DNA of 64,000 nt from Acidimicrobiia bacterium (GCA_020846855.1 JADLDD010000013.1:1530-65529); one strand, 5' to 3'; numbered from the stretch's first letter, positions 1-11,878 are shown. Notes: generated by a model not told the origin, from the sequence alone. A program made the numbers and translations.

Positions 1-1711
1 GGCCGGCCGGGCCCGGCTCGGTGGCCGCCGGGCGGGAGAGGAGCTCACGGAACAACGGGTCGCCGCGGAAGTGGTATCGGTGGCGATCGTCGGGCTTCAT
101 GTGCTCGGCCGGGGTGACCACCATCGCCTTGCGGTCGTCGCGGCGGGGGGGTCCGAGGAGGGAGACGCCGTCGATCTTCCAGGGGATCTTCACGCCGAGG
201 AGCTCGGCGACGGTCGGCAGCACGTCGATCGTCTGGGCGTTGCGGTCGTCGACCCGTCCCGCGGCCAGGCCCGGGGCCTTCACGATCAGGGGCGTGAAGG
301 CGACGTCGATCAGGTTGTTCTTGTCGAGGGCCCGGTTGAGCTGCCCATCGCCGAAACCCGCTCCGTGGTCGGCGGTGACCACCACGACGGCGTCGTCGTA
401 GGTGCCGTTGGAGCGGAGCCGCTCGAGGATCTCGCCCAGGTAGCGGTCGGCGAGCCGGAGTTGAAGCAGGTGCCGCTGCCGGGCGATGCGCCCGGCGTCG
501 GCGCTCGACCACCCGTAGTAGATCATCCCGTCGTTGCCGGACTCGTAGACCTTCTCGTCGGGCAGGAACTCCCAGGGCTGGTGGGGCAGCAGGATGTGGG
601 CGAAGTCGAGCCGGGGGCCGCGCGTGGCGGCTACGCCGTCGAGGAACTCGTGGAACGCGGGGATCCGGCGGGTGTCGACCGGATTGCCGCCGATCGAGAA
701 CCCCTTGGGGGCCTTGCTCGCCCGGCGGGCGTACTCGGGCCAGATGGAGCGGGCGTCCCCGAAGAGCGACCGGAGCTGCGTACCCAGGGAGTTGTCCTGC
801 GCGGGGGAGCACAGCGACGTCGGGCAGACGTGGGTGACCCGTTCGGACACGTGCATCGGGAAGCGGTCGCCGAGGAGGGTGAAGATGCTCTCGGGGTAGT
901 TCGACGACACCGGGACCGTGTAGGGCGCCGTGGCGTACCGGCCCGTCATGATCGCGGGCACCGCGTTCTGGGTGATCGTCCCCACCGTGGTGTTGTTGCG
1001 GAACCAGGTCGCGTCGCGCGCGAGCGCGGCGAAGTTCGGGAACAGCCCGGCGTCGATCCCTCCGTGGCCGTCGAGCAGGGACGCGGTGGGGAGCTCGTCG
1101 AACACCAGCCAGACGACGGGTCGGCCCGTCCGGACCTCGGCGGCGCGCGCGCTCGAGGTCCCGAAGATGCGGGCGACCGGCGACGCCACCACGAACAGCG
1201 CCACGAAGACGGGCGCGGAGATCGCCGCGAAGTGGAGGAACGAGCGGAACGGCGGCGCGAACCAGAACAGGGCGACCAACGCGGCGCCGGCGACGAGGGC
1301 GAGCCCCCAGATCGCGCTCCGGCTCAGCGCGAAGGTCCGGGCCAGCTCGCCCCTCGTGAACAGGGCGGTGAGGCCACCGAGGACCGCGGCCTGCGCGAGC
1401 CGGCGCGGGGTGGCCCCGAGGAGCCGGGTCGTGGTGGCCGCGGCCCACAGGGCGAGCGGAGGCAGCAGCGCCACCCCGAGGGCGAACAGGAGCACCGTCG
1501 CCCGGCCCGCGCCTTGGGCCAGGAAGGTCTGTGGGTCGTTGCCGAAGATCTGGAGGATCGGGCGCGCGAAGGTGAACGAGCAGAGGGCCAGGATCTCGAT
1601 GAAGTAGACGCCCTCGGCCCGGGCCCAGTCCGGGAGCCCGCGGCGCGGCGCGGCCGCGGCCGGAGGGGGGGTGTCCCCGGGGTCGGGTGGACCTGGGGCC
1701 GGGCCGTTCAC
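1..1711 (-). CDS. Membrane-anchored alkaline-phosphatase-superfamily (sulfatase-like/LtaS-like) transferase, 3' end truncated by window edge; paralog of 1854..3908
   Basis: Absent from the ORF track because it runs off the edge. Read manually from GTG 1711: WARAEGVYFIEILALCSFTFARPILQIFGNDP, several TM segments, VFDELPTASLLD, RNNTTVGTITQNAVPAIMTG, HILLPHQP, VVTADHG. Frame stays open to position 2. Confidence 0.85.
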   Translation of the reverse strand, partial: MNGPAPGPPDPGDTPPPAAAAPRRGLPDWARAEGVYFIEILALCSFTFARPILQIFGNDPQTFLAQGAGRATVLLFALGVALLPPLALWAAATTTRLLGATPRRLAQAAVLGGLTALFTRGELARTFALSRSAIWGLALVAGAALVALFWFAPPFRSFLHFAAISAPVFVALFVVASPVARIFGTSSARAAEVRTGRPVVWLVFDELPTASLLDGHGGIDAGLFPNFAALARDATWFRNNTTVGTITQNAVPAIMTGRYATAPYTVPVSSNYPESIFTLLGDRFPMHVSERVTHVCPTSLCSPAQDNSLGTQLRSLFGDARSIWPEYARRASKAPKGFSIGGNPVDTRRIPAFHEFLDGVAATRGPRLDFAHILLPHQPWEFLPDEKVYESGNDGMIYYGWSSADAGRIARQRHLLQLRLADRYLGEILERLRSNGTYDDAVVVVTADHGAGFGDGQLNRALDKNNLIDVAFTPLIVKAPGLAAGRVDDRNAQTIDVLPTVAELLGVKIPWKIDGVSLLGPPRRDDRKAMVVTPAEHMKPDDRHRYHFRGDPLFRELLSRPAATEPGPAG

Positions 1712-1853
1712 CGCGGGGCGTCGGGCCGCGGCCACCGACCGGGCGGCCGGACGGGCGCCGCGTGGCGATCGGCGACGGTGCGGGGCATCAAGCCGGCGAC
1801 GTTACCCCACCGCGCCCACCTGCCGGGCCCGCGACGACCGGCGTGGAGGTACG

Positions 1854-3908
1854 TCAACGGGCCTCGATCGCGTGGAGTGTGGGGCGGGCAACGGTGCCGG
1901 TGATCTCGTAGAGGCGGACGTCGTTGCGGCCCGGCCGGAGGAGCTCCTCGGGCACGATCCCCCAGACGTTCACCAGGTGCGCGGGCTTGATCGAGTGCAT
2001 CCACGCGCCGATGCGGCCGTTCACGGCGATGGCCACGAGCGCTCCCTCGGTCGCGACGTGGGCCCGTACGTACACGGGCGCCCGGTCGGAACCGGGGTCG
2101 TAGACCGGGTGACCGCTCGTCAGCCGGGCTTGGAGGGCGGACGGGGGGCCGGCGGGAAGCGCGGCCACGTCCCGCCCCACCAACGGCCCGAACCGGCCGG
2201 ACCGGAAGATCCGAAGCGTCGCGGGTCCCGGTGGGCCGGCGGCCGGCGACCTCAGGAGCGTCTCGAAGGCGCGGGTGCCGTCGAACGAGTAGATGTGCCC
2301 TCGGTCGGGTCGGATCCGGTCGTGGTCCGTGACGGCCACCCGCTTCGTGGGGAGGAGCCGTCCCGCACCGCCGAGGGAGGTACCGTCGACCCGCCCCGGC
2401 AGGTCCACGCCCAGGATGTCGGCCACGGTGGGGAGGACGTCGATGGTCTGGGCGTTGCGGTCGTGGATCGCGCCCCGGGTCTGCCGGGGGGCCTTGATGA
2501 ACAGCGGGCTGAAGGCGACGTCGGTGAGCGTCTCGCGCGTGAAGCCGCGCATCCTCGCGTGGGCCCGGAACGCCGCCCCGTGGTCGGACGTGACCACGAT
2601 CAGCGTGTCGGCGTAGGCGCCCGTCCGGCGCAGGGCGGCCGTCAGCTCGCCCAGGTAGCGGTCGGCGAGCTGGGCCTGCAACAGGTGGCGCTGGCGCCCG
2701 ATGCGGGCCGCGTCGGGGGTGAGCCACCCGAAGAAGAACCCGTCGCGCTCCTGGTCGTAGCGCTTGCCGTTCGGCAGGTACTCGAGTGGGGTGTGGGGCA
2801 GCACGACGTGGGCGAAGTCGAACGGGGCCGGCCGGCGCGGCCCCGCCGAGACCCGGTCGACGAAGCGGCGGAAGTCCTCGTGGCGGCTGCGCAGCACGAG
2901 GTCGTCGTCGATCTCGAAGGCGTTCCTCCCACCCGCCTCCGGGCCCGACGCGCGGTCGCGCCACACGCGCCAGGCCTGGTTCAGGAGGGCGCGGGTGGTA
3001 TGCGCCACCGACCCCGTGGGTGCCGAACCGCAGACGTCGGCGGGGCAGAGGCGGGTGAGCGGCTCCAGGGCGTTGACCGGGCCGCCGCCCAGGAGGGTGA
3101 ACGCGTTGCTGGGGTACCGGTCGAGGGTCGGCGGGACCTCCCCGTCGGGCGGGTAGAGGCCCGTCAGCAGGGCGGGCACCGCCCACCCGGTGAACGCGCT
3201 GACGGTGGTGTTGTTCCGGTACCAGGTCGCGTCGCGGGCGAGGGCCGCGAAGTGGGGGAAGAGCTGGGCGTCGATCGCTCCCTTGCCGTCGAGCAGGGAT
3301 GCGGTGGGGAGCTCGTCGAAGACGACCCACAGGACGGGCGCGCCGTCGCCGCGCGGTACCGGCGCCGACGACGTGTTGGACGGCCGGAGGAGCGACGCGA
3401 CGGGGGATGCGGCCAGGAACAGGACGAGGAACACGGCGCTACCCGCCGATGCGAAGCGCAGGAACGCCCGGGTCGGGGCGACCCGGAGGTAGAGCGCGGC
3501 GAAGCCGAGCGCGAGCGCGAGGCTCACACCCCAGCCGGCGGGGCGCGGCCAGCCGGTGGCGCGGGTGATCTCGGTGTGGGCGAAGACCAGCAGCCATCCG
3601 CCGAGCACCCCGACCTGGGCCGCGCGGCGGACCGCCGGGCCGGCCGGCCGGGTCAGCGCCGCGGCCGCCCACGAGGCGATGGCGGGCAGGAGGACGACGG
3701 CGAGGGCGAAGGCGACGATCCCGACCCGGCCGGCGCCGGCGGTGATGAACGTGGCCGGGTCGCGGCCGAACACGTCGAGGACGGGCTGGGCGAACGCGAA
3801 GCCGCTGACGGCGAGGATCTCGAGGAAGTAGGAGCCCTCGGTCCGGGCCCACGCGGCCGGCCCGCCCGAGGCGGCATGCTCGGGGGTGGGAGCGTCGACC
3901 GCGGCCAC
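1854..3908 (-). CDS. Membrane-anchored alkaline-phosphatase-superfamily (sulfatase-like/LtaS-like) transferase, 684 aa
   Basis: N-terminal TM helices, then metal-binding motifs VFDE, HVVLPH and TSDHG; putative Thr nucleophile in NNTTVSAFTGWAVP; no CxPxR sulfatase motif. Confidence 0.85.
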   Translation of the reverse strand: MAAVDAPTPEHAASGGPAAWARTEGSYFLEILAVSGFAFAQPVLDVFGRDPATFITAGAGRVGIVAFALAVVLLPAIASWAAAALTRPAGPAVRRAAQVGVLGGWLLVFAHTEITRATGWPRPAGWGVSLALALGFAALYLRVAPTRAFLRFASAGSAVFLVLFLAASPVASLLRPSNTSSAPVPRGDGAPVLWVVFDELPTASLLDGKGAIDAQLFPHFAALARDATWYRNNTTVSAFTGWAVPALLTGLYPPDGEVPPTLDRYPSNAFTLLGGGPVNALEPLTRLCPADVCGSAPTGSVAHTTRALLNQAWRVWRDRASGPEAGGRNAFEIDDDLVLRSRHEDFRRFVDRVSAGPRRPAPFDFAHVVLPHTPLEYLPNGKRYDQERDGFFFGWLTPDAARIGRQRHLLQAQLADRYLGELTAALRRTGAYADTLIVVTSDHGAAFRAHARMRGFTRETLTDVAFSPLFIKAPRQTRGAIHDRNAQTIDVLPTVADILGVDLPGRVDGTSLGGAGRLLPTKRVAVTDHDRIRPDRGHIYSFDGTRAFETLLRSPAAGPPGPATLRIFRSGRFGPLVGRDVAALPAGPPSALQARLTSGHPVYDPGSDRAPVYVRAHVATEGALVAIAVNGRIGAWMHSIKPAHLVNVWGIVPEELLRPGRNDVRLYEITGTVARPTLHAIEAR

Positions 3909-3947
3909 GGCAAGGCCCTCAGGAGGGGTCGGGTGCCGTCCGGCCGG

Positions 3948-5336
3948 TCACCGGGGGGTGGCGAGGAACAGCGTGCGGGTGCCGCTCGGGAGGAGCTCGC
4001 GCTTGTCGAGGGAGAACTGCTCGCCCAGGAGCTTCTCGAACGCGTCGAGTCGGTAGTCGTCGAAGAGGCCGGCCGGCTTGTTGGCCAGCAGGCGCTTGGT
4101 CATGGGGTCGTCGCGGTCGACGAACTCCACCACCGCCGGGGCGTCGAAGGAGCGCAGCCAACCCACGACCTCGGGGAGCGGGACGTTGGCCGAGATCGCG
4201 AGGTGGTGGACCAGGGCCAGGCTGAACACGAGGTCGGGCCGGACCCGCTCGGGGAACGGGGCCCGCTCCCGGTTCCGCCAGCCGATGCCGGGCGAGGGAT
4301 CGACGAGGTCCATCACCAGCGGCAGCACGTTCCCCGGCCCGCCGGCGAGGAGGCGCCGGGCGAACGCGTCGATGGTGGGCTCGTCGGCGTCGACGGCGAT
4401 CACCTGCTGCGCGTGGCGGGCGGCGATGAGCGAGTACTCGCCGTCGTTGGCCCCGAGGTCGAGGACGGTCCCGGGAGCCATGGCCCCGGCCACGCCGTCG
4501 ACGAAGGCCTGCTTGGCCGACGCGTCGGCGTCGGAGTAGGAGCAGGTCTCGCGGTAGTCGGACCAGGTGGAGCCGCGCTTCTTGACGTCGAGCTTGTGGA
4601 CGAGCTTCAGGAGCTTGCCGGCGGTCGCCTTGGCCAGCTCGAGGCCGAACCCGGCCTGCTTGAGCTGGGACTTGACCTGTTCGGTGCTGGTGGTCACCTT
4701 CTTCTCGAGCACCGAGTGCAGGTAGACGTTGCGGAAGACGCCCTTCTTGAAGCGGCGGAGACCGCCGAACATCCCCCGCACGTCGCCGGGCTCCAGGCCG
4801 TTGACGCTGCCTCGTAGGTAGCTCTGGTAGGCGATGCCCAGGTGGGCCTGAATCATCAGGGGGAATAGGAGCGTCTGGCAGAACTGGCGGTAGCCGGGCC
4901 ACGGCCCCTTCGCGGGTTCGAACGAGCCGAGGTCGATGAAGGTGGGGGCGACCCCCCGGAACTGGACGTTGTAGGCGTAGCCGTCCTTCATCGAGATCCC
5001 CTCGCCCAGCGCGGCGAGGAGGACCTCGAGGTGCAGGACGGCCGCCTGCTTGAGGAGCGCGAAGGGCCACTCGAACGGGTAGCTGATGACGGGGATCCGC
5101 TCGTGCTCGATCACCGCGGCCCACGGAGCGCCACGGGGTGAGAGCGGGGCGCCACCCTCGAACGGGGTGGTGCGGACCACCTTGCCCGCGGCGACGAGTT
5201 CCCCGAGGAACTTGGTGGCCGCCAAGCGGTCCCAGTCGGCCTTGCCCTGCTCGGACAGGCCGCGCAGCACCCGGCCGTCCTGGTAGAAGACCGCGGTGTC
5301 GGGGTCGCGGAACGACGCCGGCTCGGCGGTGGTCAT
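3948..5336 (-). CDS. Kinase-like + class I SAM-dependent methyltransferase fusion (NoeA-like), 462 aa
   Basis: N-terminal SFRDP and ISYPFEW; MKDGYAYNV and FIDLGSF resemble the catalytic loop and DFG motif; C-terminal VLDLGANDG (SAM motif I), VIAVDAD, LALVHHL. Confidence 0.8.
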   Translation of the reverse strand: MTTAEPASFRDPDTAVFYQDGRVLRGLSEQGKADWDRLAATKFLGELVAAGKVVRTTPFEGGAPLSPRGAPWAAVIEHERIPVISYPFEWPFALLKQAAVLHLEVLLAALGEGISMKDGYAYNVQFRGVAPTFIDLGSFEPAKGPWPGYRQFCQTLLFPLMIQAHLGIAYQSYLRGSVNGLEPGDVRGMFGGLRRFKKGVFRNVYLHSVLEKKVTTSTEQVKSQLKQAGFGLELAKATAGKLLKLVHKLDVKKRGSTWSDYRETCSYSDADASAKQAFVDGVAGAMAPGTVLDLGANDGEYSLIAARHAQQVIAVDADEPTIDAFARRLLAGGPGNVLPLVMDLVDPSPGIGWRNRERAPFPERVRPDLVFSLALVHHLAISANVPLPEVVGWLRSFDAPAVVEFVDRDDPMTKRLLANKPAGLFDDYRLDAFEKLLGEQFSLDKRELLPSGTRTLFLATPR

Positions 5337-5355
5337 GCGGGGGAGGCTCCCGGGC

Positions 5356-5583
5356 TCAGGTGGTGGGCGAGGTGCCGGCGTCGGCGAGGTTGTCGGTGCC
5401 CTCCTCGGCGGCCGCGAGGGCTTCCTTCTCGGCCCGGTACTCCGCCCGGGCCTTGGAGGAGAAGAGCATCTTGACGCGGCGGAGGCCCATGCGGAAGAAG
5501 ACGGCGACGGCCGCGAACCCGGCGACGGCCGCCGAGGCGACGATGCTCCCGGTGCCGGCGTCGAGGTAACCGAGTACTCGCAT
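5356..5583 (-). CDS. Small single-TM protein with YLDAGTGS motif, 75 aa
   Basis: Start re-called to ATG 5583: MRVLGYLDAGTGSIVASAAVAGFAAVAVFFRMGLRR. Motif followed by a hydrophobic helix and basic residues; first gene of the co-directional cluster. Confidence 0.75.
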   Translation of the reverse strand: MRVLGYLDAGTGSIVASAAVAGFAAVAVFFRMGLRRVKMLFSSKARAEYRAEKEALAAAEEGTDNLADAGTSPTT

Positions 5584-5753
5584 GGGCGGGGCCCCCTGGG
5601 TGGTCGGGCCGTGCGTCCGGCACGGCCGTCTACCGGATGTCAGATCTCCAAGTGTACCGAGCCGGCACGGCGGCGAACACGACGGCCCCCGGCGCCCGGC
5701 GCCCACACACTATCGCGCCGGCCCCCGGGAACCGGGACCGGCGGGGGTCGGGC

Positions 5754-8422: not shown

Positions 8423-8857
8423 ATGAAGGGCACGGCCGAGCTGACGACGATGTTCCGGGAGCGGGGCCTGCGGGTCACCCCTCAGCGCCAGGCCGTCTTC
8501 GGCCTGCTCCAGGGCAACCGCTCGCACCCGACCGTCGACGCCCTCTACGACGCCGCCCGCCGCTCGATGCCCACGATCTCGAGGCGGACCGTGTACCAGA
8601 CGGTCCACGATCTCGAGGCCATGGGCGAGGTTGAGCTGCTCGACGTCGGTACAGGCAGCCTCCGGGTCGACCCGAACGTCGAGACCGAGCACCATCACCT
8701 CGTGTGCCGCGCCTGCGGAGAGGTCCGCGACGTCGTCGCCGCCGACCGCCCGCCGGCGCCGTCGCGGGCCGAGGCGGGGTTCACCGTCACCTCCGTCGAC
8801 GTGATCTTCCGCGGCATCTGCGAGCGCTGCTCGCGGTCGGCGCGCCGGCGCCGCTAA
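8423..8857 (+). CDS. Fur family transcriptional regulator (PerR/FurA-like), 144 aa
   Basis: [31 protein letters not shown] and GICERC motifs; upstream of rubrerythrin. Confidence 0.92.
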
Positions 8858-8935
8858 CCCGACCCTCCCACGACACCGTCCCCGTCCCCCGCTGTTCCCC
8901 GACTCCCGACCCACTGCCACCCACAAGGAGCGACC

Positions 8936-9352
<417 letters not shown>

Positions 9353-9362
9353 GTACCGGCGC

Positions 9363-9396
9363 GCCGGGCCGGGCTCCCACGAGCGCCCGGCCCGGC
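9363..9396 (+). terminator. 12-bp GC-rich intercistronic hairpin after rubrerythrin
   Basis: GCCGGGCCGGGC (9363-9374) / GCCCGGCCCGGC (9385-9396) perfect inverted repeat; no U-tract, so it may be a stabiliser or partial terminator. Confidence 0.45.
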
Positions 9397-9426
9397 CCGC
9401 TCGGCTCCGGACCCGAGGAGGCCGAT

Positions 9427-10014
9427 GTGCGCAAGCTGACCGTGGGCGACATCGCCGACCTGCGGGCCTACGAGCGTGGGCGCGAGGAGTTCCGGCGCCG
9501 CATCATCGACATGAAGAAGCGCCGCCGGGTACGCCTGGGCGAGTACCTGACCGCCGTGTTCGAGAACACCGACACGATGCGGTTCCAGGTCCAGGAGATG
9601 GCCCGGGCCGAGAAGATGATCACCGACGAGGCCATCGCCCACGAGGTCGCGACCTACAACGAGCTCATCCCCGACGACGGCGAGCTCTCGGCCACGCTGC
9701 TCGTCGAGCTCACCAGCGAGGCCCTGCTGCGCGAGTGGTTGCCGAAGCTGGTCGGGATCCAGGACCACGTGGTGGTCGCGGTCGCGGGCGACGACTCGCG
9801 CAGCGAGGACCGGGACCCGTCGCGGCTAACCCGCGAGGACGAGATCACGACCACCGTCCACTACGTGAAGTTCACGCTCACGCCGTCGCAGCGCGCGGCC
9901 TTCGCCGACGGGCCGGTGCACATCAGGGTCGACCATCCCGCGTACGCCGCCGAGGTCGAGCTCGACGCCGCCACCCGCCGCGAGCTGGCCGGCGACCTCG
10001 CCGCCCCGGCCTGA
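9427..10014 (+). CDS. DUF3501 family protein, 195 aa
   Basis: Start re-called to GTG 9427 after [63 protein letters not shown]; typical rubrerythrin neighbour. Confidence 0.85.
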
Positions 10015-11559: not shown

Positions 11560-11635
11560 GCGGACGTGGCTCAGTTGGTAGAGCATCACCTTGCCAAGGT
11601 GAGGGTCGCGGGTTCGAGTCCCGTCGTCCGCTCCA
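11560..11635 (+). tRNA. tRNA-Gly (GCC)
   Basis: GCGGACG/CGTCCGC acceptor stem, GCTC/GAGC D-arm, TCACC-TTGCCAA-GGTGA anticodon arm, GGTTCGAGTCC T-loop, encoded CCA. Confidence 0.97.
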
Positions 11636-11649
11636 TAGAAACCGCAGGT

Positions 11650-11673
11650 CAGCCGGGGTGAACGCCCCGGCTG
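11650..11673 (+). terminator. Hairpin downstream of tRNA-Gly
   Basis: CAGCCGGGG-TGAACG-CCCCGGCTG inverted repeat. Confidence 0.55.
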
Positions 11674-11717
11674 CCTTCGCGTCCGGGCCCCGCCATCGCG
11701 CGAGCGCCGCGCGGGCA

Positions 11718-11806
11718 CCCGGTGCTCGACATCCCGGTGCTCGACATCCCGGTGCTCGACAACCCGGTGCTCGACAACCGGTGCTCGACAACCCGGTGCT
11801 CGACAA
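11718..11806. repeat. Tandem repeat, 6 copies of a 15-bp unit CCCGGTGCTCGACA(T/A); one copy is 14 bp
   Basis: Units start at 11718, 11733, 11748, 11763, 11778 (one C missing) and 11792; intergenic between tRNA-Gly and a convergent gene. Confidence 0.95.
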
Positions 11807-11878
11807 CCGCTACCCGACCCTGCCCACCGACCGTGACCGGTCTCGACCGCGTGGCCTCGGCCCCTGTCGCCCGGGGGG

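Follow-up and report, generated by a model that had tools for sequence, protein, structure and literature searches.

A YLDAGTGS microprotein common to NoeA-type and TagF-type cassettes, and its possible role as a tyrosine shuttle for envelope phospho-substituents

The 64,000-nt stretch of an Acidimicrobiia bacterium genome analysed here (GCA_020846855.1, JADLDD010000013.1:1530-65529; the window) begins with a four-gene cassette at 1..5583. All four open reading frames (ORFs) lie on the minus strand and encode, in order, a single-transmembrane (TM) microprotein, a protein joining a kinase-like domain to an S-adenosylmethionine (SAM) methyltransferase (MTase) and related to NoeA of S. meliloti, and two membrane proteins of the alkaline-phosphatase superfamily (APS-1 and APS-2) (Table 1). 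The microprotein is not bound to NoeA, but is common to a second, phosphonate-type module built around TagF-like proteins. This swap of loaders around one microprotein is what is new here, being absent from the open literature searched. The initial annotation described four tightly spaced co-directional genes, as is indeed the case, with gaps of 19, 39 and 142 bp. The first two figures are exact; the APS-1/APS-2 gap, however, is 142 bp only if APS-2 starts at the GTG at 1711, and 118 bp if it starts at 1735. APS-2 runs to the window edge, and in the contig its ORF continues 368 bases further left. The host genome, 83% complete, contains a single copy of the peptide gene, one kinase-MTase gene, seven full-length APS paralogs and no TagF-like gene.

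Table 1. Genes of the cassette at the start of the window
Feature	Position	Strand	Remarks
75-aa single-TM microprotein	5356..5583	-	MRVLGYLDAGTGS; YLDAGTGS motif N-terminal to helix; proposed tyrosine shuttle
NoeA/Lani_1194-family kinase-MTase, 462 aa	3948..5336	-	kinase-like domain N-terminal, SAM MTase C-terminal; proposed cytoplasmic loader
APS-1, 684-aa membrane alkaline-phosphatase-superfamily protein	1854..3908	-	proposed extracytoplasmic transferase
APS-2, 700-aa membrane APS protein (length from contig)	1..1735	-	48-49% identical to APS-1; motifs shared

Which genes keep company with the microprotein? Among 201 genomes of the host class, the peptide occurs in 53, NoeA in 44, a TagF-like gene in 11 and the window's APS family in 50. 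All 44 NoeA genomes carry the peptide, and none of the 53 peptide genomes lacks a loader or an APS gene. The loader is NoeA in 44 and TagF-like in 10, one genome (G033) having both types, each with its own adjoining peptide gene. The nine peptide genomes without NoeA all have a TagF-like gene no more than 5 kb from the peptide, and the same 5-kb proximity is seen in all ten genomes that combine TagF and peptide. (The class-wide TagF profile, which found all nine plus G033 and G124, included six of those genomes; a profile of metagenome fusions alone found the TagF-like gene near the peptide in 7 of the 9.) Where the window's APS family is missing, in four peptide genomes, another APS subfamily adjoins. 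The 148 peptide-less genomes hold no NoeA, one TagF-like gene (G124) and one member of the window's APS family (G115). Identity between TagF-linked APS proteins and those of the window is 30-37%, a range like that of the NoeA-linked ones, and the two sets interleave in a quick unrooted tree, from which the direction of the swap is not readable.

A second survey covered 201 genomes from the phylum of L037 (Vicinamibacterales). Here, the peptide was found in 44 genomes, NoeA in 48 and a TagF-like gene in one, 2.3 kb from the peptide gene of the same genome. NoeA is present in all 44 peptide genomes, and the peptide in 47 of the 48 NoeA genomes once three divergent copies, located directly upstream of NoeA, are counted. 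In genomes where the peptide gene lies apart from NoeA, it mostly still adjoins an APS gene. The rule is peptide, loader (NoeA or TagF-like) and APS gene, and the co-occurrence across phyla that the initial annotation had named as a check on its proposal held; none of the refuting outcomes it listed that are open to computation came true.

All 39 full-length NoeA relatives have the peptide next to them, more than chance would give (two incomplete loci lack it), and 26 of these 39 loci include a P0003-like APS gene. A metagenome scan by motif alone gave at least 121 stretches, of which 80 were classified and 79 had an ORF; L141-L181 stand outside the partner counts. In 42 of the 79 loci, a protein of some 410 aa has the motif and helix at its N-terminus and carries a TagF-like domain, as recognized by a local profile built from 14 metagenome fusions; PF04464 was found in four of the five fusions checked against Pfam. 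A YidC-APS match lies beside 37 of the 42 fusions, and the YidC-APS fusion retains the D, T, H and DH motifs; nine of 15 YidC-bearing neighbours also match Pfam Sulfatase. Database names for proteins of this module include Oscillospiraceae, Eubacterium, Ruminococcus bromii and Sutterella. There were 37 free peptides, 22 of them next to NoeA, 2 next to a free TagF-like gene and 1 next to phosphoramidate-type genes; the other 12 have no loader in the available DNA, which extends less than 750 bases downstream in 11 of these. (Searches for longer fusions yielded mostly short relatives, and missed known TagF fusions too.) In an unfused TagF version (L073, L108), a PhyH-family dioxygenase, the peptide, a TagF-like protein, a YejM-like APS protein and a full-length YidC follow one another in that order.

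What might the TagF-like loaders deliver? The TagF loci of G186, G033 and G048 include genes for a phosphoenolpyruvate (PEP) mutase-cytidylyltransferase, a decarboxylase (Ppd) and an iron-containing alcohol dehydrogenase, and those of G147 and G155 genes for a C26 amidotransferase, a PPDK-like protein and nucleoside triphosphate (NTP) transferases, all by Pfam. At that level, the donor-gene types of the TagF version match those of phosphonyl tailoring (Ppm/PntC) as treated in a part of PMC6697681, where surface tailoring is said to take most of the bacterial phosphonate capacity. The window's own cassette, on the other hand, has no phosphonate or phosphoramidate donor genes. The domains of the amidotransferase set presumably correspond to those of C. 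jejuni Cj1415-1418. Judged by Pfam domain sets, the genes at G147 and G155 are similar to the cytidine diphosphate (CDP)-phosphoramidate route outlined for Cj1415-1418 in a part of PMC11800397, and TagF loci of this type possibly represent a phosphoramidate-type decoration in the host class. An NTP-transferase/PPDK-like fusion and a formyltransferase-methyltransferase fusion are also found in this setting (L190, L191, L202 and L203, from G147 and G155, and L182-L186). The replacement of NoeA by TagF together with phosphonate or phosphoramidate donor genes independently supports an envelope phospho-substituent pathway.

The hydrophobic segment of the microprotein covers residues 12-30, and is followed by a basic amphipathic stretch and then an acidic tail; a clear signal peptide is not evident in the window copy. 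The protein has no match in Pfam and a below-cut-off match only in NCBIfam, and its profile matches 8,699 cluster representatives at E<=0.001. In a tally of 75 peptides, none chosen by DNA motif pattern, the Tyr and the Asp of the YxD motif are each kept in 74, and both are invariant in all 194 database profile matches, profile searches favouring Tyr by construction in both sets. Three divergent second-phylum peptides, located by position, retain the Tyr. Ser or Thr occupies +5 in 71 of the 75 peptides and +7 in 64; since neither position is invariant, Ser/Thr was rejected as the carrier residue. A signal-peptide-like leader of the form AxA followed by Y was seen in 53 of the 194 copies, using a crude rule plus by-eye judgement. 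Viral contigs gave no match to the YLDAGTGS-type motif pattern. Some additional peptide copies have no loader and adjoin further APS genes, often of another subfamily (L187, L189, L192, L194, L218, L219); the L189 copy is degenerate, yet retains Tyr and Asp.

The kinase-MTase is 32% identical to S. meliloti NoeA over 97% of its length (E 2e-59), in line with the NoeA likeness first suggested, and its closest NoeA relatives, at 59-72% identity, are from Acidimicrobiia. A sequence search of the PDB with NoeA gave no match below E 0.1. Fold searches with the whole protein detected the MTase domain only, and the kinase domain required a model of its own. Modelled alone, residues 1-252 reached a predicted local distance difference test (pLDDT) score of 89.6. 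The top Foldseek match to this model is PknG (E 4.7e-6), and its 50 best VIA structural matches are all protein-kinase folds (Z 9.0-10.9), aligned with a root-mean-square deviation of 3.5-5.1 over 159-208 residues, so the kinase fold predicted for the N-terminal domain is present. R25, D118, N123 and D135 are invariant in 42 NoeA-family sequences, R25 being an Arg in place of kinase K72. The SAM-MTase half was also correctly recognized at the outset: residues 255-462 have a class I SAM fold (Z up to 16.8) with the motif D293-x-G-x-N-x-G. Its fold matches are generic and tied, with MePCE (Z 15.3), DhpI (15.2) and BCDIN3D (14.4) alongside equally scoring N- and C-methylases. Full-length similarity, the protein-kinase-like fold, the class I MTase, and the small-protein and alkaline-phosphatase (AP)-fold neighbours place the protein in the NoeA/Lani_1194 family.

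Both APS proteins match Pfam Sulfatase (E 2e-10 and 2e-17), and hydropathy places hydrophobic helices N-terminal to the APS domain of APS-1. The metal site D198, the nucleophile position T240, H372 and D442-H443 of APS-1 do not vary among 33 relatives; in the alignment with phosphonate monoester hydrolase, T240 takes the position of the Cys nucleophile. The Cys/Ser-x-P-x-R signature of formylglycine sulfatases and phosphonate monoester hydrolases is absent, T-G-W-A-V-P being found instead. The initial annotation called these proteins LtaS-like, which is true of the Thr-nucleophile APS core behind membrane helices, but not of membership in the LtaS or NoeB families; phosphonate monoester hydrolases and sulfatases are the closest solved sequences. 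LtaS itself aligns with E values of 1.6e-8 to 2.3e-7. Membership of the LtaS family was rejected, and the family-model scores (27-31 of 970 bits for LtaS, 10-14 of 572 for OpgB and 12-23 of 825 for YejM) are far below cut-off. Orthology with NoeB was likewise not found: S. meliloti NoeB gives a local match only (27% over 97 residues, E 0.002), with superfamily motifs in common and a different subfamily. The two paralogs announced for the locus are there, but the genome holds seven in all, 31-51% identical. The other five are scattered single genes (L222-L226), with glycosyltransferases (GT4) near two of them; one distant paralog sits after a putative peptidoglycan-binding-domain gene, in the reading direction.

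The cassette is thus a member of a published module whose chemistry is unsolved. Krysinska et al. (2022; PMC9758233), in the part that covers Lani_1194, describe this Legionella protein as a kinase-MTase homologous to NoeA and leave its function open; of 816 neighbourhoods, 65% are reported to include a small hypothetical neighbour and 38% an AP-fold one. The Lani_1193/1194/1195 neighbourhood, with its kinase-MTase, small protein and AP-fold protein, resembles the window's trio, and we infer from position and size that Lani_1193 is the same peptide. In that part of PMC9758233, the small protein is assigned neither motif nor topology nor role, and no link to TagF or YidC is made. In the open-access literature (subscription journals being outside the scope), nothing was found on the peptide's role or on a connection between NoeA and TagF. 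The biochemistry of noeA and noeB has been an open question since 1995. On S. meliloti 1021 pSymA, nodL and noeA flank a gene for a 71-aa YLDPGTGS protein (L043, 3745-3960) that has a signal-peptide-like leader, and the same arrangement is found on plasmids of S. medicae and Rhizobium sp. T136; on two related plasmids (L044, L048) the gene is annotated merely as hypothetical. The nodL-(71-aa ORF)-noeA-noeB order shares with the window an APS gene following noeA, and its NoeA has the same catalytic residues as the window's kinase-MTase. The window differs in having another APS subfamily (684-700 aa), two such genes in tandem, and no nodL. NoeA-type trios are also found on Novosphingobium, Singulisphaera and Gemmatirosa plasmids.

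Three better known systems offer partial parallels. LtaS, EptA-MCR, OpgB and YejM have the same N-terminal helices, APS domain, D...T...H...DH ligands and Thr nucleophile position as the window's APS proteins; their donors are housekeeping phospholipids, and to our knowledge they have no dedicated loader or microprotein. E. coli O9a WbdD, like the window protein, has a kinase and an MTase in one chain, and its product is methyl phosphate. It is an enzyme of cytoplasmic O-antigen capping with a coiled coil and a domain order that is the reverse of that in NoeA, and, unlike the window cassette, it has no APS partner. WbdD was not among the matches listed in fold searches with the whole protein or the kinase domain, and membership of its family was rejected, there being no O-antigen or ABC-exporter context at the cassette or at 17 sampled NoeA loci. 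The analogy to WbdD drawn in the initial annotation is weak: in the corresponding part of PMC9758233 a WbdD-like role is assigned to Lcin_0519 and not to the Lani_1194 family, and no glycan gene consistently flanks the cassette or the 17 NoeA loci, whose flanks are mostly unrelated genes. DltX (in DltB-DltX-DltD) and PatA offer the third parallel, a single-TM microprotein with a near-invariant Tyr that has a loader on one side and, on the other, an outside transferase using a covalent nucleophile; as described in a part of PMC12148441, DltX and PatA carry acyl groups on an invariant Tyr. These systems differ from the window module in using acyl groups, a C-terminal FXYXXF, MBOAT and SGNH partners and loading by a membrane enzyme, whereas the window peptide has an N-terminal YxD motif and works alongside a kinase-MTase or TagF, plus an APS protein. 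The APS step probably operates on the outside like the LtaS/EptA class, and the middle step like DltX, although the module belongs to neither family.

How would the parts work together? By analogy with these systems, the microprotein may be a covalent tyrosine shuttle that NoeA loads with methyl phosphate and from which the APS proteins transfer it to an envelope acceptor, a reading that, at a probability of about 0.45, falls slightly short of even odds. NoeA would phosphorylate and then O-methylate the Tyr in the cytoplasm, methylation giving the phosphodiester that an APS transferase needs. The loaded N-tail would cross the membrane on being inserted by Sec/YidC, or else would cycle through a YidC-like groove where one is encoded. 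The APS Thr would then take the methyl phosphate and hand it to a cell-envelope acceptor, and, with a single loader and a single carrier, the seven APS paralogs may supply different acceptors. With a TagF-like loader, a cytidine monophosphate (CMP) or CDP donor would give the same peptide a phosphonate, phosphoramidate or phospho-alcohol. The product of kinase and O-methylation would be an aryl methyl phosphodiester, which is chemically close to the phosphonate monoesters and phosphoramidates on the TagF side and would suit a Thr-dependent APS transferase as donor. Kinases and TagF-type transferases both load hydroxyls, and M13 procoat is a precedent for a small YidC substrate. Tyr would be the simplest common acceptor, as both loader types act on hydroxyls and have the peptide and the APS protein in common. 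The donor had initially been placed on either a lipid or the peptide, and the loader swap favours the peptide over the lipid. A broader proposal, that phospho-substituents cross the membrane by a general protein-borne route with plug-in cytoplasmic loaders (kinase-methylase for methyl phosphate, TagF-like for phosphonates and phosphoramidates), a Tyr microprotein exposed outside, with the help of a dedicated YidC in some lineages, and banks of Thr-dependent APS proteins, is put forward tentatively, as something short of an even bet.

Several observations weigh against the tyrosine shuttle. Its weak point is topology: the basic residues following the helix and, in many copies, the signal-peptide-like leader place the Tyr outside by prediction, whereas each of the two loaders looks cytoplasmic. 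Loading of DltX goes through a membrane enzyme, and no equivalent is evident for the microprotein; nor was there a YidC in the NoeA cassette or in the free-TagF loci examined from the host class. Single-use export would be costly, most of all for the 410-aa TagF fusions. The sole exception to Tyr is a Cys, in a second, orphan copy (L195, G175), and the construction bias of the profile searches bears on all the Tyr counts. The neighbour scan, of 67 proteins from the cassette itself, five paralog regions, 17 NoeA loci and one TagF locus, gave no recurring acceptor gene. A few genomes depart from the rule: G124 (L198, 82% complete) has a weak TagF-like gene without the peptide, G115 (L197) has the window's APS family without peptide or loader, and G328 (L206) has a NoeA, its match beginning at model position 45, with no peptide in 7 kb. 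The ten genomes with TagF and peptide represent six families, and kin are not independent.

Alternatively, the microprotein could be a non-covalent adaptor, its tail tethering the loader inside and its YxD tip docking the APS protein outside, with the phospho-group riding on a lipid and the YidC-like domain, where present, acting as a scramblase. No flip of the N-tail is then required, the TagF fusion makes the module an obvious membrane anchor, and split or duplicated cassettes often keep the peptide with the APS gene (L187, L192, L194, L209, L213, L215, L218). A docking motif would also explain equally well that Asp is conserved just like Tyr, and known APS transferases (LtaS, EptA, OpgB) use lipid donors. 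A predicted complex of the peptide with APS-1 (residues 20-527) and Zn scored 0.02 and 0.25 against a mark of 0.32, which speaks for neither reading. With diacylglycerol as carrier, however, the kinase would seem redundant, phosphatidic acid already being available; the best matches of the kinase domain are protein kinases; and one peptide serves APS subfamilies that differ as widely as NoeB and the window's proteins, for which a small chemical handle is a better fit than a protein interface. The adaptor, the main rival of the shuttle, appears rather unlikely, without being far-fetched.

Whether shuttle or adaptor, the microprotein might also handle a NoeA product other than methyl phosphate: the MTase could methylate a different atom or a precursor of the acceptor, or pass on some other portion of SAM, and a small molecule could be what the kinase acts on. 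Phosphate and phosphonate methylases score no better than N- and C-methylases in the fold searches, the authors of PMC9758233 were unable to identify the ion-pair Glu of the kinase, and a part of PMC9048898 hypothesises Nod-factor modification for NoeA and NoeB. A Nod-factor-specific role was rejected; the cassette is widespread outside rhizobia. The 1995 noeA/noeB paper reportedly found no Nod-factor change in the mutants. The TagF variants, moreover, point to monoanionic diester-like groups such as kinase action and O-methylation would yield, and another chemistry appears improbable. It is more doubtful still that the APS proteins are hydrolases that remove a modification from the peptide or from a substrate outside, in a writer-eraser or scavenging circuit without envelope decoration. 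Their closest solved sequences are indeed phosphonate monoester hydrolases and sulfatases (E 2e-26), which also tells against the tyrosine shuttle, and PehA is their best NCBIfam match, far below cut-off. A Thr in place of the Cys or formylglycine nucleophile is what LtaS and EptA have, though, and multi-gene donor synthesis at the TagF loci would make little sense if the group were merely removed. The assignment of most phosphonate capacity to surface tailoring, in the part of PMC6697681 referred to above, argues in the same direction.

Why does the microprotein matter? It ties together two questions, that of noeA/noeB and that of surface phosphonates, the placing of which on cell surfaces is called enigmatic in a part of PMC6697681, and it names one residue and one adduct. 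The module is present in about a quarter of the sampled genomes (53/201 and 44-47/201). If the tyrosine shuttle is true, it would do for phospho-groups what the recently solved tyrosine shuttle of DltX/PatA does for acyl groups; the general protein-borne route, if true, would account by a single mechanism both for NoeA/NoeB and for the final steps still missing from surface phosphonate tailoring. If the microprotein is an adaptor only, the module would still be a modular envelope-tailoring machine, and none was described in the literature searched.

As for the setting of the cassette, a scan gave no sigma-70 promoter match and no minus-strand terminator match within it. RNA-library contigs from four runs cover parts of all four genes (level and strand are not given, and DNA carry-over is possible), and the sequencing runs containing host DNA are from activated sludge. 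Beyond the left edge of the window, a gene for an O-methyltransferase (PF01596; L001, 423-1085) converges on the end of APS-2. The genes at 8423-10014 of the window, which by eye we take to encode a Fur/PerR-like regulator, a rubrerythrin-like protein and a DUF3501-like protein, look ordinary, and at about 11560-11810 the translations suggest a putative tRNA gene and then a putative 15-bp tandem repeat. On the Gemmatirosa plasmid (L047), an ORF with a P-loop start, presumably sulfotransferase-like, lies head to head with the cassette at about 4700-5650 on the minus strand.

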